Positions 8,505-63,708 are shown, counted from the first letter of the stretch. The stretch: 64,000 nt of DNA from an uncultured Pseudobdellovibrionaceae bacterium (GCA_963803705.1 CAWDNU010000004.1:399943-463942); one strand, 5' to 3'. Numbers and translations: made by a program. Notes: a model not told the origin generated them from the sequence alone.

Positions 8505-9356
8505 GTGTTAAAAATATGGATATCTTCATGGCGCTACCTTTGTTTTCTATTTCCAAGATGGATTGCAAAATCTGCTGAAAGTTTTTTTCTTTCGACGTTC
8601 AGAGTTCCGCGGCCTAGCTCTGAACTTGCATTTTATGAGACAGCAAAAAAATACAAGTTGGACTCGGGCCTTCAGGCCTTCGAGTGGGGCGCGGCCTCTG
8701 ATCCACTAGTTGTGCTTTTGCATGGTTGGAACGGGCGTGGAACACAGATGGGGCATTTTGTAGCCCCATTAATTAGTCTTAACTACAGGGTCATAGCTCT
8801 TGATGGGCCTGCTCATGGTGATTCACCTGGTTCTAAAACTGATATTAAACAATTTTCTGGCGCTTTACTAGAAACGCAGAAACAACTTGGCGATTACAAA
8901 GCAATTATATCACACTCTTTTGGCACAGGTTGCTGTGTGCTTTCAACTTCAATGGGTTTGCATGTCCAGAAACTAGTGTTGATAGCCGGACCATCTAAGT
9001 ACGACCGGATGATCCAACTTTTTGTTAAAAGAGTTGGATTAAACAGTCGGTCTAAAAACTATTTTTATAAAAGCCTAAAACAAAGAACAGGTCTTGATCC
9101 GCAAGATATTAACATTGGCTTGATTGGTTCTAAGCTTGATGTAAGTGCTTTGATTGTCCACGACATAAGCGATAAGGCTGTGGACGTGAAAAACGCAAAA
9201 GACTTACACGGCCTATGGCCAAGCACCGAACTAAAGATAACTGAGGGTTTGGGTCACTACCGCATATTGAAAGATCAATCAGTCATCGATGCCGCTGTGG
9301 AATTTATTGATCGGAAAGTGATACTGAAAAAAAAGATTTTATCTTTGGATCTATAG
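8505..9356 (+). CDS. Alpha/beta hydrolase
   Basis: LLHGWNGRG forms an oxyanion/HG-type motif, ISHSFGTG is the GxSxG nucleophile elbow, and a C-terminal GLGHY provides the His. Confidence 0.7.
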   Translation: MLKIWISSWRYLCFLFPRWIAKSAESFFLSTFRVPRPSSELAFYETAKKYKLDSGLQAFEWGAASDPLVVLLHGWNGRGTQMGHFVAPLISLNYRVIALDGPAHGDSPGSKTDIKQFSGALLETQKQLGDYKAIISHSFGTGCCVLSTSMGLHVQKLVLIAGPSKYDRMIQLFVKRVGLNSRSKNYFYKSLKQRTGLDPQDINIGLIGSKLDVSALIVHDISDKAVDVKNAKDLHGLWPSTELKITEGLGHYRILKDQSVIDAAVEFIDRKVILKKKILSLDL

Positions 9357-29135: not shown

Positions 29136-29202
29136 CTTGAATTAAAACTTTTACTATTTATGCCAATCTCACTGATAAATTCCCCACGAGTCAAAGGCTG
29201 TA

Positions 29203-32454: not shown

Positions 32455-32455
32455 T

Positions 32456-35400: not shown

Positions 35401-38350
35401 AAATGCTATCGTTGTAAAAACCAGCAGCTGCACCTGCTCCGGTAAGATTAACTATAGTGTTAGCCACAACTGGAGCCACCGTTGAGTCACCATCTAAAGT
35501 TTCCACACGAAAGGGTCCTCGGCACGCACTTGTCAAAGAGCTTGCAGGCGCTGCAGGTGCCGTAATGCGTAAACCTGAAGGACTGATTGTTAACTGTCTA
35601 GTTGCGGACTGACTCATTAAACCAGCTTGATCAGAAATAAAAATGTTTAGAATTTCTGCCTGTTGGCCTTTAAAATAAACTATTACCGTTGATGATCCCT
35701 CTGGGACAGTAACACTAGTGTTAGAGCCACCACCAGAACATGATGCTGAAGTATAAAAGCGACCCGTAGAGGATGCCCCTTGCACACCATTAACATTTAA
35801 GTTGAAGGTTCTATCGGCAGGCACGTTATTATTTAATGTATCTCTTAAACGAATTGTAAATGCTGTTGAACACTGTCCAGCCACAACGCTTGATGGTCCG
35901 CTATAAATAATTTTTGAAGCCAGTACTTTGACATCTTGAAACGGTGATATAGTGGCTATATTACCCAGTGGATCTGAGGCTGTAATGACTAAGTTCTCTC
36001 CCTTAGGATCTTTTAAGTACACAAGTGTTTTGTTATTTGGTGATACACCCTGGCTCATTGGAAAACCAGCTGGCGAAATTTCTGTAGTACAAGTGTCATT
36101 AGAATAAATCTTTGCGTCCGATCCAGTGATACCTGTCATCAAAATGTTCGTGGCTCCAAAAACCTGTCCTGCCGAGTTATCTTCTGCTAGCGGAGAAATA
36201 ACAATTTTAGTAGAACACTCACCGGATAAAACAGTTAGTGTTGAACCTGGAGCTGCCGGCGGAGCGGCTTCTGCTAAAACACTTATTTTACTTGGAGTCA
36301 CATTTAAAGTGTAATTTGCCGGAGTCAAAACAGCAGATGAATCCGAGGCTACGATATTTAAAGCTAGTGACTTGTTATTTCTTAAGTAAACAGTTCTTGT
36401 GTCAGTGCCAGGTGTGAAAGTCACATTGGTACTTAACGCTGCACCTCCACAGGTGCTGCTAGAATACAAAAGTGATGTTCCCAATCCTGTAAGCTGCACA
36501 GTTGTATTAGTTGTAGCTTTTGAAGGGTTACCTCCAAAATCTCTTAGTTGTAAAGTGATCGCAGAACTACACTGTCCCGATCTGACGGACGAAGCTCCTT
36601 GCATTGATATAACTCTTGGAATACCTGCGGTTATATTGAAGTTATTGCTAGTAGCAGGACTTAAAGCACCTGAGCTTGCGACCAAACGAAAGCCACTTCC
36701 CGTTTGATCTATTCCAAGATTACTAAATGTAGCCAGGCCTCCAACTGCATTTTTGGGATGAGTTCCAGTTAAATTAGCAGCCCCGACATTATTAGAAATA
36801 GATAATGCGATGGATCCGATACTTGAAGGTCCGGATGAGATTAAGTTTCCTTGAGCATCTTGAACAGCCACTTGAATTTCGTTCATCCCATTATTTCCAG
36901 CTGGGGAATTTTGCGGCTGAATGATAAACGCCAATCTGCTGGGCGAACCGGCCTTAAACGGAGCCGCCACGGCAATTCCAGTAAGACCAGCGGGTGAAGT
37001 GATATTTAAAGTTCTTGCAGGGTTGGTATCAGCTGTAGTTGTCGAAATCGATCCTGATGTTACACCTAATGCATTTGTTGATAGTAAAGGTTGATTTAAA
37101 AAATCACCAGGAACACTGGAACTAAATTGTGGTCTTACCCCAGGCACTGCATTGCCGTATCTATCTTTTAAGTTAAATATAACTTGGTAAGAGTCTGTTC
37201 CATTAGCTACTAAAGCATCGAAAGGGGGCTGAATAGGCGGATCAATAGTGATTGTGGTAAAGTCTGGATGAACAGCTCCCGGGGTTATATTAAAAGCATT
37301 AGAATTTACAGTCATCACCGGTGTGCCAAAGCTAAGCGAAGAGGTATCGGATTTCTTCGCTGTTAGAATTTTAGAACCCGCTTCTTCAAAAAAAATATCG
37401 TTGAAAGTAGCAACCCCTGCAACCGCGTTGATTGCAAAAGTCCCTCTGACTGTTCCACCCGTTGGTGAAGCGGTTGAAATTTCTAAAGTGATCAGAGCTG
37501 TTGCATCTGGACCACCAGAAACAATATTATTGTTTTCATCTAAGACATGCACTACTGGCTGTACATTTAATAAATCACCGGCTGCTGCGTTACCTGGCTG
37601 TGTTAAAAATACCAACCGATCTGCACTGCCTAACGCGGTAAAGTTTACTGTCTGCAAATTGTTATCTTCAATCCCATCAACTGACACATTTACTTTACAT
37701 GTGTATTGAGTGTTTGTTTGCAAACCTGATATGATTACAGAACTTAAACTCATGTCTGTAATAGATTCGTAAAGTTGATAACCAGGGTTTATATTTGTAA
37801 AGCAGTAGGCAGCTGCGTTTAAAGCTTCTCCGCCACTAGTAGTGCTATAAAAAATTTGTGCTGAAGTACTTGAAACAACACTTACAGACGTTGCTCCGCC
37901 GTAGGGGATCCCTGGCGCGTCATTAATATTTATGTCTTCATTGCCCAAGTCATCAACAGCTTTAACCCTAAAACGATATAAGATATTTCTATTTAAACCA
38001 CTGATCGTCGTCGATGTCGTATCTGCATCAACTGTCTTAAGTAACACTGGGGCCGTGGGCAAAGTGGCATTATAAATATTGTATGAAACGACTTTATCTA
38101 ATGGTGATCTGACCCAACTGACTCGGACTTGATTGGCAGACAAAGTCTGAACAACATTAACACCAGTGAAACCACCAAAAGTTGTATCTCCGTCGATGGA
38201 CTCTTGAGTTAGGCTTTTTTCTGAGGGCACGCATGAGATTAAAAAGAAAACGGATAAAAGAATTAGAAAACCACTTTTTATCAACTTAAAAAACGACAGA
38301 GTCTTATCAATATTGTGGGCTTTCATATTTCTAAAGATTACTTCTATCAT
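32456..38350 (-). CDS. Giant surface lipoprotein (1964 aa): Fn3, Big_1-like and Cys-pair Ig-like modules, then an NHL-like beta-propeller region with repeated Cys-containing inserts
   Basis: The lipobox is FFLISC. Fn3 is marked by VRVSWVRSPLDKVVSYNIYN...YRFRVKAVD. Big-like segments include LVFLTQPGNAAAGDLLNVQPVVHVLDENNNIV and LAFIIQPQNSPAGN...VAVQDAQGNLI. NHL-like blades include MYRPQGLASDGTWLYITDNSLHRIQRFRVDSGSYGGWIG. The stop is 1 nt from the downstream gene's start at 32454. Confidence 0.75.
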   Translation of the reverse strand: MIEVIFRNMKAHNIDKTLSFFKLIKSGFLILLSVFFLISCVPSEKSLTQESIDGDTTFGGFTGVNVVQTLSANQVRVSWVRSPLDKVVSYNIYNATLPTAPVLLKTVDADTTSTTISGLNRNILYRFRVKAVDDLGNEDININDAPGIPYGGATSVSVVSSTSAQIFYSTTSGGEALNAAAYCFTNINPGYQLYESITDMSLSSVIISGLQTNTQYTCKVNVSVDGIEDNNLQTVNFTALGSADRLVFLTQPGNAAAGDLLNVQPVVHVLDENNNIVSGGPDATALITLEISTASPTGGTVRGTFAINAVAGVATFNDIFFEEAGSKILTAKKSDTSSLSFGTPVMTVNSNAFNITPGAVHPDFTTITIDPPIQPPFDALVANGTDSYQVIFNLKDRYGNAVPGVRPQFSSSVPGDFLNQPLLSTNALGVTSGSISTTTADTNPARTLNITSPAGLTGIAVAAPFKAGSPSRLAFIIQPQNSPAGNNGMNEIQVAVQDAQGNLISSGPSSIGSIALSISNNVGAANLTGTHPKNAVGGLATFSNLGIDQTGSGFRLVASSGALSPATSNNFNITAGIPRVISMQGASSVRSGQCSSAITLQLRDFGGNPSKATTNTTVQLTGLGTSLLYSSSTCGGAALSTNVTFTPGTDTRTVYLRNNKSLALNIVASDSSAVLTPANYTLNVTPSKISVLAEAAPPAAPGSTLTVLSGECSTKIVISPLAEDNSAGQVFGATNILMTGITGSDAKIYSNDTCTTEISPAGFPMSQGVSPNNKTLVYLKDPKGENLVITASDPLGNIATISPFQDVKVLASKIIYSGPSSVVAGQCSTAFTIRLRDTLNNNVPADRTFNLNVNGVQGASSTGRFYTSASCSGGGSNTSVTVPEGSSTVIVYFKGQQAEILNIFISDQAGLMSQSATRQLTISPSGLRITAPAAPASSLTSACRGPFRVETLDGDSTVAPVVANTIVNLTGAGAAAGFYNDSICEIGITSVTFLPGQSSKTFYFKGQYPEAPLTLTATDNAAVLTPATQAWSVIGDWGWLGTDSTQEDAGGNLLPFRMGLKPVSARYDGIRGAQQIAFTPNKQFLFVADADAHRIIKYDYQNLEYRGWIGRMLKENGIGSNGSKQPVPSNALCISTNDNQDLPGWCVGGRSRATGSTTTGGLYQPWGLVSDDTYVYVSNVSGDSVTRHRVDTGAFDGWIGQVNNSTPSGTGTGGAAGCTSVSNGAVTPGWCIGGNQTNNDSRVGDGRMLNPQGLEIDNTFLYVGVAGAVLRYNKTTGAFQGWIGMVDNTPSSGSAGCTLSSRDQLTPGWCFGGSYKSVNARSQSGVQGGVREARDIIINGTNMYVLNSGDGGVINRYNKDTGAFVERLPNLNFTWTNPQQFSFDGTYFYVSDDERILKVGTTGLIESWMGKVSNNSGMSGNAGCSSLQPNDNTPGWCLGGSHKPGLGERSFLNNYGIAFDGAGSFLAISREFAMLKKFSTATGVYQGAIGLESKSPKTWTSDRTKPAEFYGLDDNSMYSPVGSLVVGDFLFVTEREGSRVKKISKNTGQLVGWIGGITSVPTGGQTAGCLSANAMGPSPSWCLGASSYPTFTWNDNNLIDDLVDGIMYRPQGLASDGTWLYITDNSLHRIQRFRVDSGSYGGWIGRISTSSGSSPTGGAAGCSGASSGTFTPGWCFGGRSTSGSEDGMLNSPGGMTYYAGSLFVIDISNHRVSKYNATTGNFEGWIGRVNSNPTSGCGVASNGDYNIANGYEPYSGTTGWCFGGTSRAGTTRSDNGGGFFFENSNETSSIHTDGVFLFVTNTRNNRVDRFNINNGTFHSAARTREDTGQYSNTWETGRTNVNNVGNSSDCSRPISIWVDTNFIYGLNSYPCQRESDGMSLWKMDKATGNMVGWKGGISSSVPPTGGDPGCVGATASTPGWCQGGRIASGVLLGQWSGIRGMISGDANYLYVTDGDANRVVRVPK

Positions 38351-40910: not shown

Positions 40911-43900
40911 TTATGAACTTGGAATTTCAGTTTCACTCGGTTCAACTTTGCCAGGCGGCAAAGGCGGCACGGGTATAAATTCGCTGGACTTTAAGCTTAA
41001 AATTAAAGATTGAGCCTTTTTGTCGACTTCCTGATTGGTTTTAACCAACAACTCTTTAACCTCATCACGCTGCTTAACCAATTGTTCATATTGGTTTTCA
41101 AGTAAAGCTCGCTGAGGTCCAAAAACATTAGACTTAGTCATTAAAACTTCAATCTTAGAGATCTCTCTTTCGGTTATTTTCAAGTAAGGATTTAGTGGAT
41201 TAAACTCTTTGGTAGCACGTAATTCCGAAGAAATTTGTATTATCTGTTTTTGTAAACTGCCTTTTTGTGAATCAACCCATCTAGAATACAGACTCAATTG
41301 CTCTTCCCTTTTCTTAATACTGTGTAATGCAGCATCAAGTTCATGATTTTTCTTCTTGATCTTTGCATATAGGTCCTTGTTTTCGTCTATCTCATTTTGT
41401 AAACTCTGTTTTTGATTAAATACAGATTCGTACTTAGTCCCTGCGTCCACAATTTTGGACCCTAGATCGACGGATCGAAATTCAAGATCTTTAATGATGC
41501 CCGCCAACTTAGCATTCTCGTGCTTTTGGATTTCTATTTTTTTTGTCTTTTCAGAAAGATCGATAGTGGTTCTTCTTTCAAGCTCTTTATAATCTTTTTC
41601 TTTTATCTCAGCTTCATCTTTTAACTTGGTTAAGGTCGCATATTGAAGGTTGAAATCAAAATCTTTCTGCTTTAAGTTTATGTTTAAATCTATAATTTCA
41701 TCGCTTAAACTTTGATTTTTTTTCAAAAGCTCATCAGATTCATCAGATTTTACATCCAACACTTCTTTAAGTGATAAAATTTCAGTGTTCTTATTATCTA
41801 AGGTGGCCTGAAGCCCATTCAATTCTAGTAGCTGTTCTTTTTTATCATTCATAAGCAGACTTATATCAGCTTGTAAAAAACTGTTTTCTTCAATAAGTCC
41901 ACTAATTTCAATATTTAGGTCCACTATCTTATCATCAAACTCTTTTTCGCACAGTTCTAATTTGTAAAGATGAGCATTTTGAATCTCTAGGGTACGACTT
42001 TTGTTAGCAATTTGACTTTCTAAGTCTGTGATCCGGTTTTCCAAATTTTTATTTATACCAATCAAAACACCATGTTCTTCAGAAGATTTATTAATAAGTC
42101 CTTGCTTCGAATCAGCTTCTGCTTTTTTATCTTCATAGCTTAAACCTAATAATCTTTTTTCTTCTAACAGTGATTCTTTTTCTAAAGCTTGCGAACTTAA
42201 ATCCTTTTGCAGGGAAATATTCTTCTCTTTTAAATCATGAATCTTATCCTGTAAGCCAGTGGCTTCAGCAATTAGGTCCTTTTTCTCGAATTCTAATTGA
42301 TCAAATAATATTTGCTGTTTTTCAAGCATACTATTTTTGTACTCTAACTTCTGATTTAAACCTAAAACCTCTTCCTTCAGCCCATCATTAAGTGTGACTG
42401 AAGATTTATGGTCCCTAATAGAATCATCAATTATCTTTTGCTTGGAAATAAGCACGGTCTCTTTTGATGACAACTGAATTTTAAGCTCTTCAATTTTTTG
42501 ATGGGCATCTAAAATTGTTGAATTTAGCGACTTTTGTCGCTGTTCACTTACACTCATGCTTTTTTTGTTTTCAATAATCTCTAGTTGAAGCTCATTTAGT
42601 TGAACGTTTACAGCAGATATTTTATCTTCAGACTCAGCCCTAAAATCATCTGATTTTAAAACTTCATCCTGGTACAAAGAAAGTTCCGCAGTTAAATCCT
42701 CATTTTTTTTCTTTAGCAAGACTTCTTGCGTTTCCAATCCGTTAATTTTAATCTCTAGCAATTCTAAATCTCTTAAATTATCTGCTATCTTTTGATGAGC
42801 CTGAACTAGAATTTCAGAAATTTTATCAATCTCAATTTTTTTATCTTTTTCTAGTTTTGAAATTTCTGTTTCAAATTCTATTTTCTGATCTTTAAGGCTT
42901 AGTTCTAACTTTTTATTGTTAGCCGCAAGACTCTCACTTTGCTTTATACTGACGCCATAATCTTGTTCTAAAAAATCTATTTTATTTAAAGCCACAGACA
43001 ATTTTTCCAGTACAGATCGATTTTGTTCTTTTTCGTAACTTAAGTCTTTGTCTAAATTTTTAAACTTCACCTTCAGTTCTGAAAAATCTTTTAGTTGTCT
43101 TTCAAGCTCAACCATCTCGTCAGTTTTACTTTCAAAGGTTTTTCTTAAAACAGACATTTGGTGCCCGACCATTACTATCTGCTCTCTTAAATTTTTATTA
43201 TCTTCTAAAGCTGTTTTTAAATCCAGGCTCTTGTTTTCTAGGTCTGTGTCTGAAGCCTTTATGCTGGCTTCAAAACGATCGATTTTTTGTCTTTGGACTT
43301 GCAACTCGTTTGATTTTTTTCCTATTAGCTCTTCAGCTTTTTTTAGATCGGTCGCCACTAAGTCAAAAGACTCTTGTAGTTCTGATTTTTGAAGTAGTAT
43401 TTTTTCAGACTGTTGTTCGTGTTCCAAAACCAAGTTGTCAAATCGCTCTGTCCAACTTTTGTTTTCGCGGTTTAAGTATTCGATTTCAGCTTTATATTCG
43501 TTGATTTTTTTAAGGTTTGTTTCACTCTCTACCATTAGTTTCTTATATTCAGATTTTGATAAACTAAGGTCTTTGCTTACTAAAATAACTTTTTGATTTA
43601 AACTTAGCCGCTCTTGTTCAAATGATTTGAATTTTTCTTGATAAGAAAGAAGGTCATCAATTTTTTTATTTAAGTAATTAATTTCTTTTGTTTTCTCGTT
43701 CAACTCAGTGTTGAGTGACGACATTATTTTTTTTGAAACTTCTTTATCTTTATTAAATTTAAGTTCTAACTCTTTTTTATCGGATTTTAATGATAGATTT
43801 TGGCTACTTATCTCTTCGTTAGTTTTATTTACTTCAGCTAATTGATTACTTGATTTAGTATTATTTGCAGCAAGTTCAGAAATATAGGTTTGTAGCTGTT

Positions 43901-44510
43901 CTTTTTCAGCTTGAATTCTTTTGCTTTTTGCCTGGGCTAACCTTTCTTTGTCCTCTGACTTTTTCAGCAGTAGAGCCTTAGTCTCTAGCATCGTCTGCTC
44001 ATAACTTTGAGTAGCTGCTTCTATCTCTTTATCTTTTCTCATTATTTGCTGCTGATAGTCATTAAGCTTAGCTTCTTTAGATTTAATAACTTCTCGAAAC
44101 TGGTCAATCTTGCTTTCGCTGGCTTGCTTCTTATTATTAATATCTTCAAATTTTTCTAAAAGATCGTTTCTTATTTTAAGCAGCGTATCTACTCTTTCCT
44201 GATACTTTCTCCTGATCGAAAGCAGCTCACTCTGTTTTTCGTCTAGTTTTTTGCCTAAAAAACTAATTTTTTGATCACTTTTTATCAATTCAGAGTGAAT
44301 CTTTTGTTTTTCACTCTCGATCATTTTTATCTTTTGATTGTTTTTTTCATGCCCTTCAATAAACCCATTAATATCATTAAATAAACTTTGATGGTTCCAA
44401 TTGACACCCTCCAAAGCCTGTTTAATCTTGGCCAACTTGTGATCAGTTGCGCTAAGGCTTTTCTTGTCTTTTGTCTTCAACTTTTTTTGCACGACCTGTC
44501 TTTTTTCCAT
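40911..44510 (-). CDS. Very long cytoplasmic coiled-coil protein (1199 aa)
   Basis: It has no signal peptide or TM segment. Composition is E/K/L/Q/N-rich and heptad-like throughout, with a short Pro-rich C-terminus (IPVPPLPPGKVEPSE). Confidence 0.7.
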   Translation of the reverse strand: MEKRQVVQKKLKTKDKKSLSATDHKLAKIKQALEGVNWNHQSLFNDINGFIEGHEKNNQKIKMIESEKQKIHSELIKSDQKISFLGKKLDEKQSELLSIRRKYQERVDTLLKIRNDLLEKFEDINNKKQASESKIDQFREVIKSKEAKLNDYQQQIMRKDKEIEAATQSYEQTMLETKALLLKKSEDKERLAQAKSKRIQAEKEQLQTYISELAANNTKSSNQLAEVNKTNEEISSQNLSLKSDKKELELKFNKDKEVSKKIMSSLNTELNEKTKEINYLNKKIDDLLSYQEKFKSFEQERLSLNQKVILVSKDLSLSKSEYKKLMVESETNLKKINEYKAEIEYLNRENKSWTERFDNLVLEHEQQSEKILLQKSELQESFDLVATDLKKAEELIGKKSNELQVQRQKIDRFEASIKASDTDLENKSLDLKTALEDNKNLREQIVMVGHQMSVLRKTFESKTDEMVELERQLKDFSELKVKFKNLDKDLSYEKEQNRSVLEKLSVALNKIDFLEQDYGVSIKQSESLAANNKKLELSLKDQKIEFETEISKLEKDKKIEIDKISEILVQAHQKIADNLRDLELLEIKINGLETQEVLLKKKNEDLTAELSLYQDEVLKSDDFRAESEDKISAVNVQLNELQLEIIENKKSMSVSEQRQKSLNSTILDAHQKIEELKIQLSSKETVLISKQKIIDDSIRDHKSSVTLNDGLKEEVLGLNQKLEYKNSMLEKQQILFDQLEFEKKDLIAEATGLQDKIHDLKEKNISLQKDLSSQALEKESLLEEKRLLGLSYEDKKAEADSKQGLINKSSEEHGVLIGINKNLENRITDLESQIANKSRTLEIQNAHLYKLELCEKEFDDKIVDLNIEISGLIEENSFLQADISLLMNDKKEQLLELNGLQATLDNKNTEILSLKEVLDVKSDESDELLKKNQSLSDEIIDLNINLKQKDFDFNLQYATLTKLKDEAEIKEKDYKELERRTTIDLSEKTKKIEIQKHENAKLAGIIKDLEFRSVDLGSKIVDAGTKYESVFNQKQSLQNEIDENKDLYAKIKKKNHELDAALHSIKKREEQLSLYSRWVDSQKGSLQKQIIQISSELRATKEFNPLNPYLKITEREISKIEVLMTKSNVFGPQRALLENQYEQLVKQRDEVKELLVKTNQEVDKKAQSLILSLKSSEFIPVPPLPPGKVEPSETEIPSS

Positions 44511-44520
44511 TAATAAACCC

Positions 44521-45990
44521 TTATTTAAAATCTTTTAAATTCAAACCTGTCTTTGGCGGCAGCGCTTTGGACCCATCATAATTAACTTTCATTAGATCTA
44601 CTTGTGATTTCAAATAGGTTGATTTTAGTTTAATGTTTTGGGCTAAATTATTAATTTTGCCAGCCAACTCTAAACTTTTATCTTTCCCATTTAGAAAGCT
44701 ATCTTGCAGTACATGAAGTTCGAAAATCATTTGAGTCACTGTCCCGTAAGCTTGGTATAGAGTTAAATAGTAAATTTTTGATTTCAAGTCAGCGGACTTA
44801 AGCTGCTCAAACATTTCTACGATATTTTTCTGTGTTCCAAGCCAGTCTACTGAAAAACGATTCCAGGCGGCTAAATTTTTGCTACTCAGCGAGCGATTAT
44901 ATATATTCAATGACTTTTGATACTGTCCTAATAAAGTTTCATTTAGATCAATCAGTTCATTTAACTCTATCGACGCGCTTTCTCTGGCTTTAGAATGAAA
45001 ACTTTCCAGTTGTTGATTATAACTACTAAGTCCCGACAGACCAAACTTATGGGTAGAGCTATACAGTTCTAAATTTTTCTTATCACAACTCAAACACGTA
45101 ACAGACACGTTGTACTCTCCTGCAGGTAGGTACTCGCCTTGATCGCCTCGAATTGCGCCGGTTTGAAAATATGGGCTTGTTAGGTTTATTTCTACCGACT
45201 TACCAAACCTAAATGCATTTAAAAGAGAATCAGGATTGCCCTGAATGTCCACCCTAATTTTAGATGCTGAAGGCAAATTTACGCTACCGACAAAAACCGG
45301 GTCTTTAAATGGCGTATCCTTTTCGTAAAAAACTAAGCTGGGGTCTTTTGTTGTAGCCGGTTTTTTTGCATTTGATATCAATTGAGCTTTAATCTCGGTG
45401 GGTAAGTCGCTGATAAATGATTTCGCTGAATACAGATTGTTAATTAAAATCCCGAAAAGAAAAAGAAGGGCAATTGATGAAAGGCCCAATCCAACTTGGT
45501 AATACCTTATGTTATCTTTGTTAAGTCCTAACTGACGTCCTAATAAAAAAGCACTTTGTTTCATTATAAACTTGAAGCTATTCATTTTATCAACCAAACC
45601 ATCTTGGCCTTTAATGCTGACTACTTTTACCGAGTCTAAATTTGCAAAGCTCATTTCTTTGTCTTGAAATTTAATTCGATCGATAGACCCAAGTTGGGCC
45701 TGAAACGAAAAGTCATTATCTGAAATGTTTTCGATATCAAAGGTCCCGCAAGAACGAAAACTTTCGATGCACTTTAATGAAATCCATGCTTTAAGTCCTG
45801 GTCGCCAAATATGGTGATCAATTGATATCAGCCTATTTAAGAGCAGCTGATTTACCTGCTTGGTTGTAAGTGGACCAAAATGCCTAGTCTGGCGAAATAT
45901 AAACCAATCACCTAGTTCGTGGCCGAGCTCAATTTGCTTAGGGTTTAGAAAATTTTCATTACCAGTGTCTGGTGCTTTATCTGTATTCAC
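44521..45990 (-). CDS. GYF_2 (DUF4339)-domain membrane protein with a large extracytoplasmic C-terminal region
   Basis: The N-terminal WFIFRQTRHFGPLTTKQVNQLLLNRLISIDHHIWRPGLKAWISL fits the GYF_2 pattern. There is a single TM helix (GLGLSSIALLFLFGILINNL). The gene is 10 nt from the downstream gene. Confidence 0.6.
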   Translation of the reverse strand: MNTDKAPDTGNENFLNPKQIELGHELGDWFIFRQTRHFGPLTTKQVNQLLLNRLISIDHHIWRPGLKAWISLKCIESFRSCGTFDIENISDNDFSFQAQLGSIDRIKFQDKEMSFANLDSVKVVSIKGQDGLVDKMNSFKFIMKQSAFLLGRQLGLNKDNIRYYQVGLGLSSIALLFLFGILINNLYSAKSFISDLPTEIKAQLISNAKKPATTKDPSLVFYEKDTPFKDPVFVGSVNLPSASKIRVDIQGNPDSLLNAFRFGKSVEINLTSPYFQTGAIRGDQGEYLPAGEYNVSVTCLSCDKKNLELYSSTHKFGLSGLSSYNQQLESFHSKARESASIELNELIDLNETLLGQYQKSLNIYNRSLSSKNLAAWNRFSVDWLGTQKNIVEMFEQLKSADLKSKIYYLTLYQAYGTVTQMIFELHVLQDSFLNGKDKSLELAGKINNLAQNIKLKSTYLKSQVDLMKVNYDGSKALPPKTGLNLKDFK

Positions 45991-55879: not shown

Positions 55880-57034
55880 TTGGATAGTAATTTAGACTTA
55901 CCGATATTAGATAACGAAAGGAATAAAGAAGAAGCTTTATTCCTTTCAGACGTTTATTTTTCTATGGTGGAGCTTATAAACATAAGTTGCAAAAAGACTT
56001 TGTTAGATATGGGGCTTTATCATTTCAATAAACCTGGAAAGATGATTCGATCAAAAATTATTTATGAGTTAGGACTTAGTTACAATATTCCACTTACACA
56101 ACTGCTCAAGTGGTCTATGGCATGCGAGCTTTTGCACGAGGCAAGCCTAATCCATGATGATCTGCAAGATGGCGATAAGATCAGGCGAGATCAAAAATCG
56201 GTCTGGTTTAGATATGGTGCTGCTCAGGCCATAAATTTGGGTGACTTTCTACTTATGCTTTCTTACCAACCCTTAGGGTCTTTATCATCACGCTTAACCA
56301 GCCTTCACGTGCAAACGTCTTTGAAGCTTGTTCAAGGCCAGGCCAACGAGTTTGATATGGGTAAAACTAAAATTAATTCCACATTAGATTTAGAAACTAA
56401 AGTTTTAAACGAATCCATCACAGACGAATATCTTGACTGCGTACGCGGTAAAACTGGAGCTTTATTTGCAAGTCTTGCAACTGGAATTTCATTTTTGGCG
56501 TCCACTGGCGAGTTCGAACGCAGGTATCTAGATGATATATTTTTAGAATTGGGCGTAATTTTTCAGATTCAAGACGACTTGCTAGATTTATTCGGTGATA
56601 AAAAACGAGGGGCACAGGGTGCAGATATTGGGGAGGGCAAATGTAGCGTTTTAATCGCTATTCACTTTGACTCTTACCCAGAAGATATAGCCTATATTAA
56701 TTCAATATTAGAAAAACCAAGAAATGACACTACAATCGAAGACATTGAAAACCTAAAGTGTATTTTTATCGAAAAAGGCACTTTGAATAGCTGTATTGTG
56801 TTTTTAAAAACTAAGATAAACGAGCTTAAGGCTCACATGTCAGACAGGCAAGATTCTGGTTACAATGCAGACATCGTTAGCAAAGTCTTAACTTTTATAG
56901 AGCAAATTTTAGCTCCTATTCAGCATGTTTATGAACAAAACAGATATAAGTTCGAATCTGAAATCGATGCATTAGACAATAATTTTGAAGTCGATAACCA
57001 AACATTTGCAAATTTGAAAGATTTAAGTTCGTAA
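55880..57034 (+). CDS. crtE: Polyprenyl (geranylgeranyl) diphosphate synthase, CrtE-like (TTG start; start uncertain)
   Basis: The first Asp-rich motif is LLHEASLIHDDLQDGDKIRR and the second is FQIQDDLLD. The gene heads the carotenoid operon. Confidence 0.75.
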   Translation: MDSNLDLPILDNERNKEEALFLSDVYFSMVELINISCKKTLLDMGLYHFNKPGKMIRSKIIYELGLSYNIPLTQLLKWSMACELLHEASLIHDDLQDGDKIRRDQKSVWFRYGAAQAINLGDFLLMLSYQPLGSLSSRLTSLHVQTSLKLVQGQANEFDMGKTKINSTLDLETKVLNESITDEYLDCVRGKTGALFASLATGISFLASTGEFERRYLDDIFLELGVIFQIQDDLLDLFGDKKRGAQGADIGEGKCSVLIAIHFDSYPEDIAYINSILEKPRNDTTIEDIENLKCIFIEKGTLNSCIVFLKTKINELKAHMSDRQDSGYNADIVSKVLTFIEQILAPIQHVYEQNRYKFESEIDALDNNFEVDNQTFANLKDLSS

Positions 57035-57036
57035 AG

Positions 57037-57930
57037 ATGACGACTTGCCCTGCTTTAAAATTTCAAAACGTTTCTAAAAAATATGGTACCCAACTAGCGC
57101 TTCAAAATATAAACGTAACCATCGAGCCCCATGAGCAAGTCGCTCTACTAGGCTGTAATGGTGCTGGTAAATCAACTTTTATTAATTTAGCCACTGGGCT
57201 TAGGCAGCAAACTTCTGGCGACATATCTGTATTCGACTCAAAAAACCTTATCCCTAGGGTAAAGTCTAAAATCGGCTACCTGCCCCAGGTGTTGAAGTTT
57301 CCGTCGTATTTAAAGGTAAAAGAAATTATCAATGTCGTTGAAGCACACTTTAATGACAAAGTTTTAAAAGACCTTTTAGAAAGGTTAGACCTTTATAGAT
57401 TAATGGACAGGTACTGTTCAGGACTAAGCGGCGGCGAGGAAAGAAAACTAGGATTAGTTTTGTCTCTTATAGGTCACAGGCCTTTGCTAATCCTTGATGA
57501 GCCGACCGCTAACGTAGACTTGGTGGCTAAGTCCGAAATTCACAAAATTATTGCTGAACATATCAAGGATTATAACCAGTCTTTTCTATTTTCCTCTCAC
57601 GAAATGAGTGAAGTCGAAAAACTTGCTAAAAGAGTTATAGTACTCAATCAGGGACAAATCGTTGCAGATGGAAATGTTCAGCAAATCAAACAGTCTTTTG
57701 GATCTATGACAGTGAAGTTCAGTGCAGATTCTTTTGATTCAATTCTTACTTCATCGACAAAAATCGAGCGGCAAGCAGTCATCGATGGAACGATTAGCTA
57801 CAAAATTTTTGGTGCAAGCAGCGATAAAATTATCAAAGAGATTATTGAAAGAGAAATAGATTTTAAAAATCTGACTGTTGAGCAAACATCATTAGATGAG
57901 GTTTTTTTAAAACTTTGGAGTAAAAGCTAA
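57037..57930 (+). CDS. ABC transporter ATP-binding protein
   Basis: It has Walker A (GCNGAGKST), the signature (LSGGEERK) and Walker B (LLILDEPT). Confidence 0.9.
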   Translation: MTTCPALKFQNVSKKYGTQLALQNINVTIEPHEQVALLGCNGAGKSTFINLATGLRQQTSGDISVFDSKNLIPRVKSKIGYLPQVLKFPSYLKVKEIINVVEAHFNDKVLKDLLERLDLYRLMDRYCSGLSGGEERKLGLVLSLIGHRPLLILDEPTANVDLVAKSEIHKIIAEHIKDYNQSFLFSSHEMSEVEKLAKRVIVLNQGQIVADGNVQQIKQSFGSMTVKFSADSFDSILTSSTKIERQAVIDGTISYKIFGASSDKIIKEIIEREIDFKNLTVEQTSLDEVFLKLWSKS

Positions 57931-58664
57931 TGAGATTAATTTTGACACACGCTAGTTGGATGGTTTTAGAGCTTTTACGCCAACCAGCATATATAGTGTC
58001 AACTTTAGCCTTCCCTGCTTTGTTCTACATTATATTTGCCATTCCTGAATCCAACACAGAGCAGTCTTCGAATTTCCTTTTGGCTTCATTCTGTGGGTTT
58101 GCAAATTTTGGAGTTTTATTTTTGCAGTTTGGTGTTGGCGTGGCTCAAGAGCGATCTAAATCCTGGTATCACTATTTAAGAACTCTACCGTTAAATTATT
58201 TTCAGTTGATTATGGCAAGATTTCTATCTTCTTATGTTTTTGCTATTTTATCCATATTGGTTCTTGTATTTTTAGCTAAACTGTTCACCTTAGCAAGCTT
58301 AACCCCTTTGCAGTGGTTATACTTTTCATTGGCCCACTTAGGTTTAGGTCTGATATTTTGTTTGATGGGTTTAACATTGGGTTACTGGGCTGAAGAAAAA
58401 ACAGCTTTACCTATTGGTAATCTTATTTATTTACCTCTTACTTTTGCTGGTGGCCTATGGAAACCACCTTCTCAGTTACCCCTCAGTATTAAAGGGGTTT
58501 CCGAGTATTTACCCACAAGACACTACGGAGAAGTCTTGTGGGCTATAGTGAGTGAAAAAAATGTTGATACTGAGTATCTTTTTGGTTTGTTTATTTATGG
58601 ACTGCTCTTTCTTGCTTTAAGTTATGCTGGTTTAAGCAAGGATTTAAAATCTAGGATGTCTTGA
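57930..58664 (+). CDS. ABC-2-type transporter permease
   Basis: It has six hydrophobic helices. Its start overlaps the ATPase stop (TAATG). Confidence 0.65.
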   Translation: MRLILTHASWMVLELLRQPAYIVSTLAFPALFYIIFAIPESNTEQSSNFLLASFCGFANFGVLFLQFGVGVAQERSKSWYHYLRTLPLNYFQLIMARFLSSYVFAILSILVLVFLAKLFTLASLTPLQWLYFSLAHLGLGLIFCLMGLTLGYWAEEKTALPIGNLIYLPLTFAGGLWKPPSQLPLSIKGVSEYLPTRHYGEVLWAIVSEKNVDTEYLFGLFIYGLLFLALSYAGLSKDLKSRMS

Positions 58665-59803
58665 TCGTGTCTGCCAATTTGAATTTAGAACATTTTGAAA
58701 CCTATAGCTCTTATATTCCGGTGAGTCTTAACCTACTTAATCTACATGGATTTATTGTCGTTAACCTAACCTTGAGCGCCTTTATTATATTCAGGTATTT
58801 TCTGATGGTTTCACCCTTTCACTTTCTAAGAAATGTTTTGGTAAAGTCTAAGTTAAAGCATAAACAAATTAGGCATGAAATCAGATATTCGATCTTGTCC
58901 ACGGTTTTTTTTAGCTTAAGTGGTTACTTGATAGCGCTTTTATGGGACTTAGAACTCACAAAAATTTACTTAAAGTTTGATGAATTTGGTTATACCTATC
59001 TTCTAGTTAGCTTTTTCATTTTTGCTTTTTTTCACGAAGTATATTTTTACTTCACTCACCTTTGGATGCATCAACCCAAAATTTTTAAAAAAGTACACAG
59101 CGTGCACCACTTTTCCAATCCTACTTCACCCTGGGCCTCATTTTCGTTTCATCCTTACGAATGCCTCATTCATGCAGCATTTCTACCTTTGATGGTTATA
59201 GTTATTCCAATCCACCCTACTGTTTTAATTGGTTATTTAACTTTTATGACTTTGACTGCGATTTTTAATCATTTAGGTTTTGAAATTTTTCCCTTCAAAG
59301 CGTTCAACAAACACTTTATTTCTGGAACACACCATAGCCTTCACCATAAACACTTTAAAGGTAATTACGGGCTGTATTTTTGTTTGATTGATCGACTGCT
59401 AAAAACTGAAATTAGGCCTCTAAGTGAAACTGTGAAGCCGGGGCCGAAAAGGCCTCAACGCAACGCTATGAAGCCGGGGCCGGGAAGGCCTCAATGCGAC
59501 GCTATGAAGCCGGGGCCGGGAAGGCCTCAATGCGACGCTATGAAACCGGGGCCGGGAAGGCCTCAATGCGACGCTATGAAGCCGGGGCCGGGAAGGCCTC
59601 AATGCGACGCTATGAAACCGGGGCCGGGAAGGCCTCAATGCGACGCTATGAAGCCGGGGCCGGGAAGGCCTCAATGCGACGCTATGAAACCGGGGCCGGG
59701 AAGGCCTCAATGCGACGCTATGAAGCCGGGGCCGGGAAGGCCTCAGTGCGACGCTATGAAGCCGGGGCCGGGAAGGCCTTTAAGTGAAGCTGCGAAGTCT
59801 TGA
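58661..59803 (+). CDS. Fatty-acid-hydroxylase/sterol-desaturase-family di-iron enzyme (candidate carotenoid-modifying hydroxylase) with a tandem-repeat C-terminal tail
   Basis: The His boxes are HLWMH, HSVHH and HHSLHHKH. The core ends near ...LIDRLLKTEIRPLSE. About 10 copies of MKPGPGRPQCDA follow in frame. Confidence 0.7.
   Translation: MIVSANLNLEHFETYSSYIPVSLNLLNLHGFIVVNLTLSAFIIFRYFLMVSPFHFLRNVLVKSKLKHKQIRHEIRYSILSTVFFSLSGYLIALLWDLELTKIYLKFDEFGYTYLLVSFFIFAFFHEVYFYFTHLWMHQPKIFKKVHSVHHFSNPTSPWASFSFHPYECLIHAAFLPLMVIVIPIHPTVLIGYLTFMTLTAIFNHLGFEIFPFKAFNKHFISGTHHSLHHKHFKGNYGLYFCLIDRLLKTEIRPLSETVKPGPKRPQRNAMKPGPGRPQCDAMKPGPGRPQCDAMKPGPGRPQCDAMKPGPGRPQCDAMKPGPGRPQCDAMKPGPGRPQCDAMKPGPGRPQCDAMKPGPGRPQCDAMKPGPGRPLSEAAKS
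59432..59781. repeat. 36-bp perfect-to-near-perfect tandem repeat, ~9.7 copies, GC-rich
   Basis: The unit is ATGAA(G/A)CCGGGGCCGGGAAGGCCTCAATGCGACGCT. Full units start at 59432, 59468, 59504, 59540, 59576, 59612, 59648, 59684 and 59720, and a partial unit starts at 59756. The array is flanked by the direct repeat AGGCCT(C/T)TAAGTGAA(A/G)CTG(T/C)GAAG at about 59413 and 59773. Confidence 0.97.
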
Positions 59804-59819
59804 AACTAAAGGAGAAGCT

Positions 59820-61292
59820 ATGAAGAAAGCAATTGTGATAGGATCGGGCTTTGGCGGATTGGCGAGCGCAGTCCATCTGATTAAAAAAGGTTATGAAGTC
59901 ACTATTCTTGAAGCCAGAGACCAGTTTGGTGGCCGCGCTGGAGTTTTCAGAAAAGAAGGATTCACCTTTGACGCTGGCCCTACGGTTATCACTGCCCCCC
60001 ACCTTATCTCTGAACTTTTTGAATCACTTGATGAAAACCCCGACGAGTATTACAGATTGCTTCCCATCGACCCCTTTTATAGAATTATGTTCGATGACGA
60101 ATCTATATTCGATTATGTCGGCGAAGAAGAAAGGATTATCGAAAACGTAAGAAAGCTTAGCCCTAAAGACGTTGATGGATATAAAAAGTTGGCAGATCAC
60201 GCAAAACGTATATTCGATGTTGGTTACACAGATCTTGCCGATCAACCATTTGACACTTTTGCATCAATGCTTCGAGTAGCACCCGATATGATTAGGTTAC
60301 AAAACTATAAAAGTGTTTATTCATTGGTTTCAAAGTATATAAAAGACGAGCGTCTAAGGCAGGCATTTAGCTTCGAGCCATTACTTGTAGGAGGAAATCC
60401 TTTCAAAATTACTTCTATTTATCTTTTGATACATTGGTTAGAAAGAAAATGGGGAGTACATTTTGTTGAAGGTGGTACCACTGCGCTTATTTCAGCTTTT
60501 GTAAAATTGCTTCAAAAAAAAGGAGCAATCCTTAAGACGAACCAAAGTGTTAGTCGAATTGAAGTCCAGAACAAATCTGTTACCAATGTAATTACAACCA
60601 CAGGGGAAGTTTACTCGGCAGATGTGGTCGTGAGCAACGCAGACCCCGTAAGAGTCTACCGGGATATGATTGATTCATCCAGCAGACCTTCGATGTCTAA
60701 CAGAAAGCTAAACAAAAAAACTCATTCCATGAGTTTATTCGTAGCTTATTTTGGCACCCATAAGACTTATGAAAAGTTAGCCCACCACACTATCATTTTG
60801 GGACCTAGGTACAAAGGTCTGCTAAATGATATTTTCAGCAAAAAAATTTTAGCAGAAGATTTCAGCCTATATCTACATGCTCCAACACGAACTGATAAGT
60901 CCCTAGCGCCGGCTGGAAACGAATGTTTCTATGTATTATCACCTGTACCTAATTCACTGGGTAAGGTTGATTGGTCCACAGAAGAAAGTATTTACAAAGA
61001 AAAAATTTATAACTTTCTTGAATCAAAAATTTTAGAAAATCTTAAGTCCAACCTAAAAGTCGACCTATCAGTAACCCCTAAGTATTTTGAATATGATCTT
61101 CAAAGCGAACACGGGGCTGCTTTTGGAATTGAGCCAAGCTTTACCCAGTCAGCTTACTTCAGGTTTCATAACAGATGTAAGGATATTGGTGGTCTATACT
61201 TTGTAGGTGCTAATACGCATCCCGGCGCAGGGGTGCCTGGTGTTTTGAATTCAGCCAAAGTTATAGACAGAGTTGTACCAATGGCTTTTTAG
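59820..61292 (+). CDS. crtI: Phytoene desaturase
   Basis: MKKAIVIGSGFGGLA is the FAD-binding fold and the C-terminal motif is GANTHPGAGVPGV. An AGGAG RBS at 59810-59814 precedes the ATG at 59820. The track start at 59784 lies in the repeat flank. Confidence 0.9.
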   Translation: MKKAIVIGSGFGGLASAVHLIKKGYEVTILEARDQFGGRAGVFRKEGFTFDAGPTVITAPHLISELFESLDENPDEYYRLLPIDPFYRIMFDDESIFDYVGEEERIIENVRKLSPKDVDGYKKLADHAKRIFDVGYTDLADQPFDTFASMLRVAPDMIRLQNYKSVYSLVSKYIKDERLRQAFSFEPLLVGGNPFKITSIYLLIHWLERKWGVHFVEGGTTALISAFVKLLQKKGAILKTNQSVSRIEVQNKSVTNVITTTGEVYSADVVVSNADPVRVYRDMIDSSSRPSMSNRKLNKKTHSMSLFVAYFGTHKTYEKLAHHTIILGPRYKGLLNDIFSKKILAEDFSLYLHAPTRTDKSLAPAGNECFYVLSPVPNSLGKVDWSTEESIYKEKIYNFLESKILENLKSNLKVDLSVTPKYFEYDLQSEHGAAFGIEPSFTQSAYFRFHNRCKDIGGLYFVGANTHPGAGVPGVLNSAKVIDRVVPMAF

Positions 61293-61374
61293 TGACTTTT
61301 TTGTTGAAAAAAATTTGGTAATTACATTTGGCAGTCACAGCTGTTGCTATCATTTAAATGCATGAAGGTTAAAC

Positions 61375-62313
61375 GTGAAAAATCTTAAGATTCAAAATCC
61401 TGAACTGATGATGTTTAAACATGGCAAGTCTTTTCATTTTGCAGCTCAGGTATTTTCTAGAGATACATTCCAAAGAATAATTTATTTGTATGCTTTCTGT
61501 AGATTTATCGACGACACAGCTGATGAGCAAAAGCCAGAGTCAGCACTTAAAGATTTGACAGCCATCAATCAGATCTTAAATTCAGGACAGACTGTTGCAA
61601 GTTCAAGAGTCCCAACTGAAGCTTCAGAAATAACTGTTAAGGAATTGATTCAAAAACTTTTTGATTTTAATTTGAAAAGATCTTACTTACAAGTTTTAGT
61701 CGATGGTGCTTTATTCGACGTGAACTCTCAGAAAATAGTCACTCTAAAGGATCTTTTAAGATACTGCTATCATGTGGCAGGTGTTGTAGGTCTTATGATG
61801 TGCCCATTAATTTTAGTCTTTAAAAAAAAGGCTTTTGCTTTTGCAATTGATTTAGGGATCGGGATGCAGATCACAAATATTTGCCGGGATGTCCTTGAAG
61901 ATGCCAAAAATAACAGAACATATCTACCTTCAGATGATCTTCATATTGCTGGGCTTTCGATCGAGGATTTGAAAGTTTCAGGCCCTACCCCTGACAAGCT
62001 TAAAAACCTTATAGAAAACTATTTAAATTTAGCTGACGTTTATTATGAAAGCTCATTTTATGGTTTTGCTTACATACCTTTACGACCACGTATTGCCATT
62101 TTATATGCGTCTGAAATCTACAAAGCTATAGGCAAAAAACTAAGGCGTCAGGACTATAACGTACTGCACGGCCGAGTCTACCTTTCAAAAACTGAAAAGT
62201 TTTTCGTGTGCTTTATATCAACTTTTAAAATGCTGCATCCAAGATTCTGGTTTGCCGGCATTCATAACCCAAAACTACACACGTCCCTTCACGACCTACC
62301 CGAAGTCGATTGA
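61375..62313 (+). CDS. crtB: Phytoene synthase
   Basis: YAFCRFIDDTADE is the first Asp-rich motif, followed by YCYHVAGVVG and QITNICRDVLEDAKNNRTYLP. The start is GTG; the ATG at 61405 is an alternative. Confidence 0.9.
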   Translation: MKNLKIQNPELMMFKHGKSFHFAAQVFSRDTFQRIIYLYAFCRFIDDTADEQKPESALKDLTAINQILNSGQTVASSRVPTEASEITVKELIQKLFDFNLKRSYLQVLVDGALFDVNSQKIVTLKDLLRYCYHVAGVVGLMMCPLILVFKKKAFAFAIDLGIGMQITNICRDVLEDAKNNRTYLPSDDLHIAGLSIEDLKVSGPTPDKLKNLIENYLNLADVYYESSFYGFAYIPLRPRIAILYASEIYKAIGKKLRRQDYNVLHGRVYLSKTEKFFVCFISTFKMLHPRFWFAGIHNPKLHTSLHDLPEVD

Positions 62314-62478
62314 CAATTGACGATTGGCTGTTGGCTAAGCCTGTTAAGGATAACTAGGCCCAAATAGCGAACTACGCACAGCGTATCTAAGTTATATTTG
62401 TGCCCGTTGAAGCCGAGGTCTACTATATAAAAAGTTCGTTATTTTTTAATAACTAGTATTTTTAAAAGGCATCCAACT

Positions 62479-63225
62479 TTGACCTATTTTGATTTCTTAC
62501 TGAGTTTTATCGCAATACCTTTAGCTGTCTTAGTTGTATATACCACGCATTATCCAAATAAAGACAAAGCTTATATTCTAAAAGGTGTTGCTGTTTTATG
62601 TGGACTGGCTTTTGTGTACACAACTCCTTGGGATAATTATTTGTTGGCCAAAGAGGTATGGTGGTACGGCCCCGACCGAGTGATGTTTACTATTGGTTAT
62701 GTTCCTATAGAGGAATATAGCTTTTTCCTGCTACAAACTATATTAACTGGGCTTTGGACTCATTTAGTTTTAAATCACTCGCCCTCACTTAGACCTGCAA
62801 AACCTGATGCAAAAACTATAAATAGATTTAAATTTATAATTGCAACCGCCATTGCTGGACTGTGGATTTATGGAATCAGGTCACTATTTGTTGAACAGTC
62901 TTTTTATCTTGGACTTATATTGGCATGGGCTACACCCATAGTTTTGCTGCAATTTGTAATTGGTGGGCAGCACATTCTTAACAACATGAATTCATTTTTT
63001 TTATGTGTCATAACCCCTACTTTATACTTATGGTACGCAGATCTTTACGCTATTAATGATGGCATTTGGAGCATTTCTAAAACGTACACTATCGGTCTTG
63101 AGTTTTCAGGTTTACCCATCGAAGAGATGATATTCTTTTTGATTACCAATATCATGGTCGTTCAAGGTCTTCTATTATTTGTAATAATGAGGGACACTGT
63201 TAAAACAGTATTTAATCGCAACTAA
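62479..63225 (+). CDS. crtY: Lycopene cyclase, fused heterodimeric (CrtYc/CrtYd-type) lycopene-cyclase-domain protein
   Basis: It has seven hydrophobic helices and two copies of the cyclase-domain motif (PIEEYSFFLLQ and PIEEMIFFLITN). Length is 248 aa. Confidence 0.8.
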   Translation: MTYFDFLLSFIAIPLAVLVVYTTHYPNKDKAYILKGVAVLCGLAFVYTTPWDNYLLAKEVWWYGPDRVMFTIGYVPIEEYSFFLLQTILTGLWTHLVLNHSPSLRPAKPDAKTINRFKFIIATAIAGLWIYGIRSLFVEQSFYLGLILAWATPIVLLQFVIGGQHILNNMNSFFLCVITPTLYLWYADLYAINDGIWSISKTYTIGLEFSGLPIEEMIFFLITNIMVVQGLLLFVIMRDTVKTVFNRN

Positions 63226-63243
63226 AGCAGATGGCTCAAATCA

Positions 63244-63708
63244 ATGGTCGAATTTACCTTAGAATGTTTTTTGATTTTTTTAATTACTTTTTTAGGTATG
63301 GAATTCGCCGCCTGGTGGCTTCATAAATATGTGATGCATGGTTTTTTATGGAGCTTGCACATAGACCATCATGTGATTAACAAAAAGCGCTGGTGGCAGC
63401 TCAATGATTTTTTTGCTATTTTTTTCGCTATACCTAGTTTTTTTAGCATCCTTTTGTCATCGATCTACGGACTACCATTACTAGGGGCATTTGGTTTCGG
63501 CATCATGGCCTATGGCGGGGCTTACTTCTTTGTTCATGAAATTATAATTCACCGAAGAATCAATCTAAAAGGCTTAAACAAAGGGTTTTATATCAATGGT
63601 GTGAAAATGGCTCACCACATACACCACTCTGTTCGAACAAAAGATGGTGCTAAAAACTTTGGGATGCTGATTGTTTCATTTTCATATTTTAAAAAAAAGC
63701 CCCGCTAG
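63244..63708 (+). CDS. crtZ: Beta-carotene 3-hydroxylase
   Basis: It is 154 aa. The His motifs are HKYVMHG, HIDHH, HEIIIH and AHHIHH, in the arrangement typical of CrtZ. Confidence 0.85.
   Translation: MVEFTLECFLIFLITFLGMEFAAWWLHKYVMHGFLWSLHIDHHVINKKRWWQLNDFFAIFFAIPSFFSILLSSIYGLPLLGAFGFGIMAYGGAYFFVHEIIIHRRINLKGLNKGFYINGVKMAHHIHHSVRTKDGAKNFGMLIVSFSYFKKKPR

Follow-up and report, generated by a model that had tools for sequence, protein, structure and literature searches.

A probable young coding minisatellite at the junction of a hydroxylase gene and crtI in the carotenoid operon of an uncultured Pseudobdellovibrionaceae bacterium

In a 64,000-nucleotide stretch of DNA from an uncultured Pseudobdellovibrionaceae bacterium (GCA_963803705.1 CAWDNU010000004.1:399943-463942; the whole stretch is referred to here as the window), a hydroxylase gene of a carotenoid operon ends in a GC-rich array of 36-bp repeats that stands immediately ahead of the phytoene desaturase gene crtI. 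We consider it probable that this array is a young coding minisatellite, or variable number tandem repeat (VNTR), at the C-terminus of the hydroxylase and its junction with crtI. An earlier description of the sequence, the original prediction, had offered three readings of the array: a hypervariable VNTR, a functional tail, and a foreign insertion. The first is the best supported of these. The copies lie head to tail without spacers, the unit length is divisible by three and the unit contains no stop codon in the hydroxylase frame, and the two assemblies available differ by a whole unit, so that in each of these respects the array is a minisatellite.

Structure of the array and its variation between assemblies

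Tandem Repeats Finder reported one strong tandem array in the window, at 59433-59779 (period 36, 9.6 copies, 96% matches, no indels, score 638), with runner-up repeats in the 64 kb scoring at most 57. The consensus 36-mer was matched eight times at one mismatch or fewer and found no match in 100 dinucleotide-preserving shuffles. Phased on AGGCCT, the sequence resolves into 11 in-register units, U0 to U10 (59414-59803), which are spacer free and spaced at exactly 36 bp (Table 1). The original prediction had described about 9.7 in-frame copies of a GC-rich unit lying between two near-duplicate 24-mers. The array is real and in frame, and the 24-mers (59414-37 and 59774-97) are present and alike at 21 of 24 positions, but they are themselves diverged outermost copies of the unit, and the array extends over about 10.8 units rather than 9.7. 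The first 24 nucleotides (nt) of U0 duplicate native C-terminal codons that recur in U10.

Divergence among the units follows a gradient, from the old edges U0 and U10 through an intermediate U1 to eight near-identical interior units, U2 to U9, which are 97 to 100% identical. The interior units vary in just two ways, both of them A/G transitions: AAG/AAA, and a single instance of CAA/CAG. As had been claimed, both are synonymous in the hydroxylase frame; they are synonymous in neither of the other open frames. The alternation described for the AAG/AAA variants was also confirmed, and the series G A G A G A G along the interior units would imply the amplification of a 72-bp dimer.

The second view of the locus comes from an independent k=31 de Bruijn assembly of run ERR12040027 (Logan), in which two contigs, L025 (26.6 kb) and L026 (5.3 kb), also encode the exact ABC-2 permease and crtI proteins of the window, crtI being on L026. 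L025 ends and L026 begins inside the array, precisely at the last and the first unique 31-mer, respectively, and the 31-mers adjacent to these breakpoints occur four and five times in the window. Such breaks are what a de Bruijn assembler would be expected to produce at a genuine tandem repeat of which the reads contain two or more interior units. Outside the array, the window and the Logan contigs show no mismatches over about 9.8 kb, and because the assemblies are otherwise identical, the array is the only site seen to vary in about 10 kb. The Logan allele lacks one 36-bp register at the left edge of the array: U1 is gone, and U0 runs in register straight into a unit of the interior type, which is the product that would be expected of slippage or unequal exchange within the shared segment AAGCCGGGGCCG. 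In the one comparison available, the array is polymorphic.

Comparisons of U0, U1, the interior units, and the opening 24 nt of U10 (59414-59803; L025 5490-5533) gave only transitions wherever a difference could be scored as a point change between near-identical copies, comprising AAA/GGA, the C/T and A/G differences in U1, AAG/AAA, CAA/CAG, and the three U0/U10 mismatches. This pattern could be the result of ordinary transition bias or of a deamination-type or sequencing-related process.

We propose that replication slippage or unequal recombination inside the last hydroxylase codons made the array. The array has a GC content of 63.4%, compared with 37.7% for the remaining window, and a single short GC-rich seed, amplified about 10-fold, would produce an island of this composition. 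Foreign DNA is not needed to account for it, because GC-rich 30-mers are native to the window, with about 15 occurrences elsewhere in it, and the amplification of one would suffice. Because the unit consists of whole codons, the native last residues of the hydroxylase, its stop codon, and the crtI initiation region would be kept at any copy number.

Table 1. Coordinates of the repeat units, the variable register, and the flanking genes in the window
Feature	Position	Strand	Remarks
Host open reading frame, FA_hydroxylase-superfamily membrane di-iron enzyme	58661..59803	+	PF04116, E 3.8e-22, residues 119-249
U0, diverged first unit, RPLSETVKPGPK	59414..59449	+	28/36 vs consensus
36-bp register missing from the Logan allele	59447..59482	+	All 5533 nt of L025 compared are an exact substring of the window minus this register
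U1, variant unit, RPQRNAMKPGPG	59450..59485	+	34/36 vs consensus; two transitions from interior units; missing in the Logan allele
U2-U9, eight homogenised interior units, RPQCDAMKPGPG	59486..59773	+	35-36/36 vs consensus
U10, diverged last unit, cut off by the stop codon	59774..59803	+	RPLSEAAKS + TGA (59801-59803)
Shine-Dalgarno sequence of crtI, AGGAG	59810..59814	+	5 nt 5' of the ATG; undisturbed by the array
crtI, phytoene desaturase	59820..61292	+	TIGR02734, E 3e-172

The host hydroxylase and its predicted tail

The open reading frame (ORF) that carries the array encodes 380 amino acids (aa) from a TTG at 58661, with a catalytic core at about residues 20 to 250 and the repeat tail at residues 252 to 380. 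The corresponding database protein, P0001, has 378 aa, from which we infer a start two codons downstream. Its PF04116 score of 79.6 bits, compared with a gathering cutoff of 31, places the protein in the FA_hydroxylase family, and the invariant His-box histidines of alignment A1 are all present (H125, H133, H137, H146, H149, H150, H224, H225, H228, and H229). With the catalytic core and the His boxes intact, both in the sequence and in the structural model, the hydroxylase is probably active.

Each unit is 12 codons long, and the array is stop free in the hydroxylase frame. The original prediction held that all six frames are open across it; only three are (that of the hydroxylase, one other on the plus strand, and one on the minus strand), and the other three have a stop in every unit. 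By our estimate, chance would leave a frame of 12 codons at 63% GC open in about 70% of cases. The start of crtI does lie just past the extended ORF, as had been noted, with its ATG at 59820 following the end of the stop codon (59801-59803) by 16 nt.

Searches for the hydroxylase found 549 homologues at an E value of 0.001 or less, 119 of which are listed besides the window's own protein. Lengths among these 119 listed matches are about 226 to 301 aa, compared with 378 to 380 aa here, and none of them has the tail; the nearest of them, at 73% identity, is without the array. Those homologues that carry names derive from Halobacteriovoraceae, Pseudobdellovibrio, and Bdellovibrionaceae metagenome-assembled genomes. 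In alignment A1, the C-termini of relatives end 3 to 10 residues past a conserved KTE(I). After the NYGLY motif, 114 homologues have 13 to 45 aa (median, 24 aa, taken over 115 sequences including the window's own), versus 141 aa in this protein. The ancestral ending suggested in the original prediction, ...EIRPLSEAAKS*, is plausible in this light: with the array removed, the C-terminus would read ...KTEIRPLSEAAKS* and extend 21 aa past NYGLY, which is within the range of the homologues and typical of the family.

The closest homologues (L013, L014, and L015) stand in the same gene order. In the DNA of these relatives, the hydroxylase stop codon either overlaps the crtI start codon (ATGA) or is separated from it by 13 nt, an AAGGAG ribosome-binding site lies inside the last hydroxylase codons, and nothing resembles the unit. 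Clusters of five operon proteins at 90% identity were singletons, with no close relative available for a comparison of copy number.

If the hydroxylase is expressed, translation would cross the array and add a tail of about 116 aa rich in proline, glycine, lysine, and arginine. The whole segment from residue 252 amounts to 129 aa, with 24% Pro, 15% Gly, eight Cys residues, and a net charge of +14, and the peptides predicted from the array translation include PGPGRPQCDAMK and QCDAMKPGPGR. Its codon usage includes rare codons (CCG, GGG, and AGG account for 13, 12, and 18% of their respective families in the genome), and the GC content at third codon positions is 0.67 in the tail versus 0.32. AlphaFold2 assigned predicted local distance difference test values of 82 to 92 to the catalytic core and 33 to 41 to residues 270 to 380, where the alignment is uninformative; the tail's predicted secondary structure is limited to one short, low-confidence helix at residues 374 to 379. 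On this model, the tail is probably disordered. It would lie on the cytoplasmic side of the membrane, because it follows the third His box without an intervening membrane helix, and it would be tolerated because the C-terminus of this family naturally varies in length and sequence. We propose further that the tail serves no dedicated function, with its copy number drifting between cells and strains.

The operon comprises, in order, genes for a polyprenyl (geranylgeranyl pyrophosphate [GGPP]) synthase, an ATP-binding cassette (ABC) ATPase, an ABC-2 permease, the hydroxylase, crtI, crtB, a lycopene-cyclase-domain protein, and a CrtZ-like small FA_hydroxylase. The ABC ATPase and ABC-2 permease stand after the GGPP synthase and ahead of the crt enzymes in the window (55880-63708) and likewise in L013 (3290-10521) and L015 (3241-9203), and this order is kept in relatives that are about 70% identical; in L015, the cyclase and crtZ-like genes are missing, and Omp85 and TamB follow.

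Other parts of the window also drew attention. Three giant ORFs of 2304, 1083, and 1964 aa lie in a row on the minus strand at 22221-38350 and carry fn3, FG-GAP, Big_1, and NHL domains; by their domain content they look like a cluster of surface or adhesin-type proteins. A 1199-aa ORF on the minus strand (40911-44510), with no Pfam match, falls within the most AT-rich stretch of the window, 41200-44800, where GC content is 0.29 to 0.35, AT skew is -0.2 to -0.35, and GC skew is negative. The sole other GC-rich island longer than 45 nt, at 8660-8706 within the ORF 8505-9356 (GGACTCGGGCCTTCAGGCCTTCGAGTGGGGCGCGGCCTCTGATCCAC), also has AGGCCT and GGCC motifs.

Competing explanations

Several observations weigh against a minisatellite of the kind proposed here. 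Neither U10 nor the relatives contain anything that corresponds to the GC-rich part of the unit, CCGGGGCCGGGA, which this reading leaves unaccounted for. Interior units also depart from U0 and U10 in their middle part, at about 6 to 7 of 14 positions, which means that duplication of the native tail is by itself insufficient. The two kinds of interior variant are silent in the hydroxylase frame alone, a pattern compatible with selection on the peptide, although not significantly so. The polymorphism is a single comparison, possibly between assemblies of one sample, and shows the second allele only where its contigs reach into the array. Finally, the search for further copies covered the 64-kb window of the 986-kb contig and the collections described below.

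A resemblance was noticed between the unit and the start of crtI. The region 59814-59825, GAAGCTATGAAG, agrees at 11 of 12 positions with GACGCTATGAAG of the unit (for example, at 59498-59509); the same place reads GAAGCTGCGAAG in U10 and GAAACTGTGAAG in U0. The exact 9-mer GCTATGAAG has two occurrences elsewhere in the window, one of them at the crtI start, 40 nt downstream of the array. The unit and the crtI translation-initiation region may be related by descent, although an attempt to derive the unit from GAAGCTATGAAG gave no convincing duplication path.

The first alternative is that the array encodes a functional C-terminal domain of recent origin, in the form of a disordered arm that is basic, rich in Pro and Gly, and supplied with a Cys in every 12 residues. 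Such an arm might coordinate metal, pass electrons, hold the enzyme to acidic lipids, or serve as the docking site of a partner, for instance an electron donor or other Crt enzymes. The in-frame, stop-free array, the regular spacing of the cysteines, the net charge, the intact and probably active enzyme core, and the confinement of interior variation to changes that are synonymous in the host frame alone are what such an arm would lead one to look for. The last of these signals, however, consists of two synonymous events, with a probability of about 0.09 under neutrality (not significant); U1 has two non-synonymous changes relative to the interior units; and a stop-free frame is the likelier outcome for a unit of this composition. 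Nothing similar occurs among the homologues listed, 5.8 billion protein clusters hold no peptide match, an allele with different unit content coexists, and the tail is predicted to be disordered and is written in rare codons. The original prediction of a tail for metal or redox chemistry or for docking thus found neither backing nor refutation, and we regard a functional domain as unlikely. A bolder version is de novo domain birth, in which a basic, Cys-studded, disordered cytoplasmic arm would already be under selection, recruiting an electron donor or Crt enzymes or binding metal, while whole-unit steps in its length tune pigment output between cells; this we hold to be distinctly improbable.

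Similarly improbable is a foreign or mobile GC-rich insertion at the gene end that duplicated a 24-bp target, AGGCCTYTAAGTGAARCTGYGAAG, and was then amplified. The composition of the array (63% GC in a 38% GC genome), the imperfect 24-bp direct repeats (21 of 24) that flank its homogeneous part, and the segment CCGGGGCCGGGA with its lack of a native counterpart speak for an insertion. Against it, U0 is a 78% identical copy of the unit, so that the supposed target duplication is where the array itself ends; the native sequence of the window includes GC-rich 30-mers; unit and array have neither terminal inverted repeats nor a palindrome; no mobility gene adjoins them; and the operon is syntenic with those of relatives.

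No donor emerged from the collections searched, and no further copy emerged from the window; the foreign insertion of the original prediction gained no positive evidence. The 36-mer had been put forward for such searches, and they revealed no dispersal, only chance matches. Within the 64-kb window there was no extra copy of the 36-mer or of its 18-mer core at up to three mismatches, and blastn-short comparisons of a unit dimer and of U0 plus U1 with the array-masked window gave only chance matches of 12 nt or less. A degenerate 21-mer core was scanned against 596 Gb of species-representative genomes, JGI metagenomes, and IMG/VR viral contigs, yielding 11, 9, and 1 isolated matches, respectively, none of which extends past the pattern; the other half of the unit had no match in the viral contigs. 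A peptide query joining the three open-frame translations matched, among the 5.8 billion clusters and at E values up to 10, only the window's own protein. Because the window's own proteins sit in that collection, this result suggests, within the limits of a word-based candidate search, that a multi-unit copy in an open frame is absent from all other predicted proteins of the source genome. A dispersed small repeat element, such as a repetitive extragenic palindromic sequence, mycobacterial interspersed repetitive unit (MIRU), Rickettsia palindromic element, or miniature inverted-repeat transposable element, was rejected as a candidate: the repeat occupies a single locus in the searched data, has no palindrome, and has no stable fold.

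Some matches to the 21-mer core fall in a conserved stretch of Verrucomicrobiota (Roseibacillus and Akkermansiaceae; L001, L002, L003, L005, L007, L018, L022, and L023). To judge from their sequences, they are a chance overlap with a conserved gene, because their flanks are near identical among those genomes and unrelated to the unit.

An assembly or polishing artefact, in which the array, or at least its copy number and edge variants, would not be as written, is very unlikely. Speaking for it, the two assemblies differ only inside the array, and tandem repeats are a known cause of assembly error (PMC6868369). A check against independent data nevertheless came out in favor of the array: the k=31 assembly of ERR12040027 holds both unique-to-repeat junctions, which requires at least two interior units in the reads. 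The structured variants (U1, the alternating A/G, and the one CAG) are also unlike those of a collapsed or hallucinated repeat.

Least credible of all is a cis-acting nucleic acid element, with hairpins, long-loop G-quadruplexes (G4), or repeated protein-binding sites tuning the coupling of hydroxylase and crtI or the transcription of the operon; the array does lie 16 nt upstream of crtI, where relatives overlap stop and start codons, and each unit can form a 6-bp GGGGCC/GGCCUC hairpin, but the whole-array RNA, the unit dimer as DNA on either strand, and the array-crtI junction fold no better than shuffled sequences (z = -1.6, -0.4, -1.4, and +0.2, respectively), the crtI Shine-Dalgarno sequence is free in the centroid fold, Rfam and tRNA scans gave no match, a promoter and terminator scan found no such site within it, canonical G4 (four tracts of at least three G, loops of 1 to 7 nt) number zero in the array, 16 motifs appearing only when the central loop may span as many as 30 nt (it is 29 nt here), and the array is conserved in no relative.

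Against these alternatives, a young coding minisatellite accounts for the gradient of divergence and for the whole-unit difference between assemblies, and the feature is lineage specific and very probably the product of ordinary repeat dynamics.

Significance and comparison with known repeat systems

The event is of a type already known, and the tail may have a function, although nothing found here supports one; a new biological question would be opened only if the tail proved functional. At face value, the locus is a clean and datable case of a protein made about 45% longer (from about 260 to 380 aa) through tandem expansion at a C-terminus that permits it, with the downstream operon gene left undisturbed. 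It also illustrates how a compositional island, at 63% GC in a 38% GC genome, can arise by amplification of a single short seed, with no need for horizontal transfer. In practical terms, the locus would probably serve for strain typing in a lineage that has not been sampled otherwise and is apparently of the Bdellovibrionota. It is also a place where short-read assemblies break, and its 380-aa protein, an outlier in its family, is a warning to annotators.

In its 36-bp length, the unit is like the repeats typical of clustered regularly interspaced short palindromic repeat (CRISPR) arrays, but a CRISPR array was rejected as a candidate since the units abut at exactly 36 bp with no spacers inside a coding frame, and they form no significant hairpin. 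A second comparison is with GC-rich, G4-forming minisatellites of eukaryotes, of which human CEB1 is an example. These share with the present array a GC-rich, G-skewed tandem unit of about 36 to 39 bp with two G-tracts per unit; unlike them, this array is bacterial and coding, and it has no canonical G4, since a 29-nt central loop would be needed.

Coding VNTRs, or minisatellites, of bacteria are in-frame tandem repeats of 9 to 100 bp that are used as markers in multiple-locus VNTR analysis. The array described here resembles them in its spacer-free, head-to-tail arrangement, its open unit with a length that is a multiple of three, its homogenised interior and diverged edges, its change by whole units, and its low-complexity product. 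It differs from them in that its host is a pigment-pathway membrane enzyme, with the tail predicted on the cytoplasmic face, rather than a surface or secreted protein, that the unit is far more GC rich than the genome, and that a single alternative allele is known.

Precedent also comes from small repeat elements that join genes in frame or lengthen them at the 3' end, described in the review PMC3184786 with reference to Ogata 2000, Delihas 2007, and Croucher 2011. As in those cases, an open short repeat here adds to the C-terminus of a normal protein and leaves the protein intact; those elements, however, are dispersed, usually palindromic, single insertions, whereas the repeat studied here is non-palindromic, tandem, and found at one locus.

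The closest parallel by position is provided by the MIRU-VNTR loci of Mycobacterium, whose units of 40 to 100 bp occur at about 40 to 50 loci per genome, between the genes of operons, with ORF ends that overlap the neighboring genes (PMC3184786). MIRU-VNTRs are a dispersed family in another phylum, with imperfect terminal inverted repeats, whereas the present repeat was found at one locus, lacks such termini, and has no sequence similarity to them. The two nonetheless have in common a GC-rich, number-variable array at a junction within an operon, in a frame continuous with the flanking gene, that leaves the downstream start intact.

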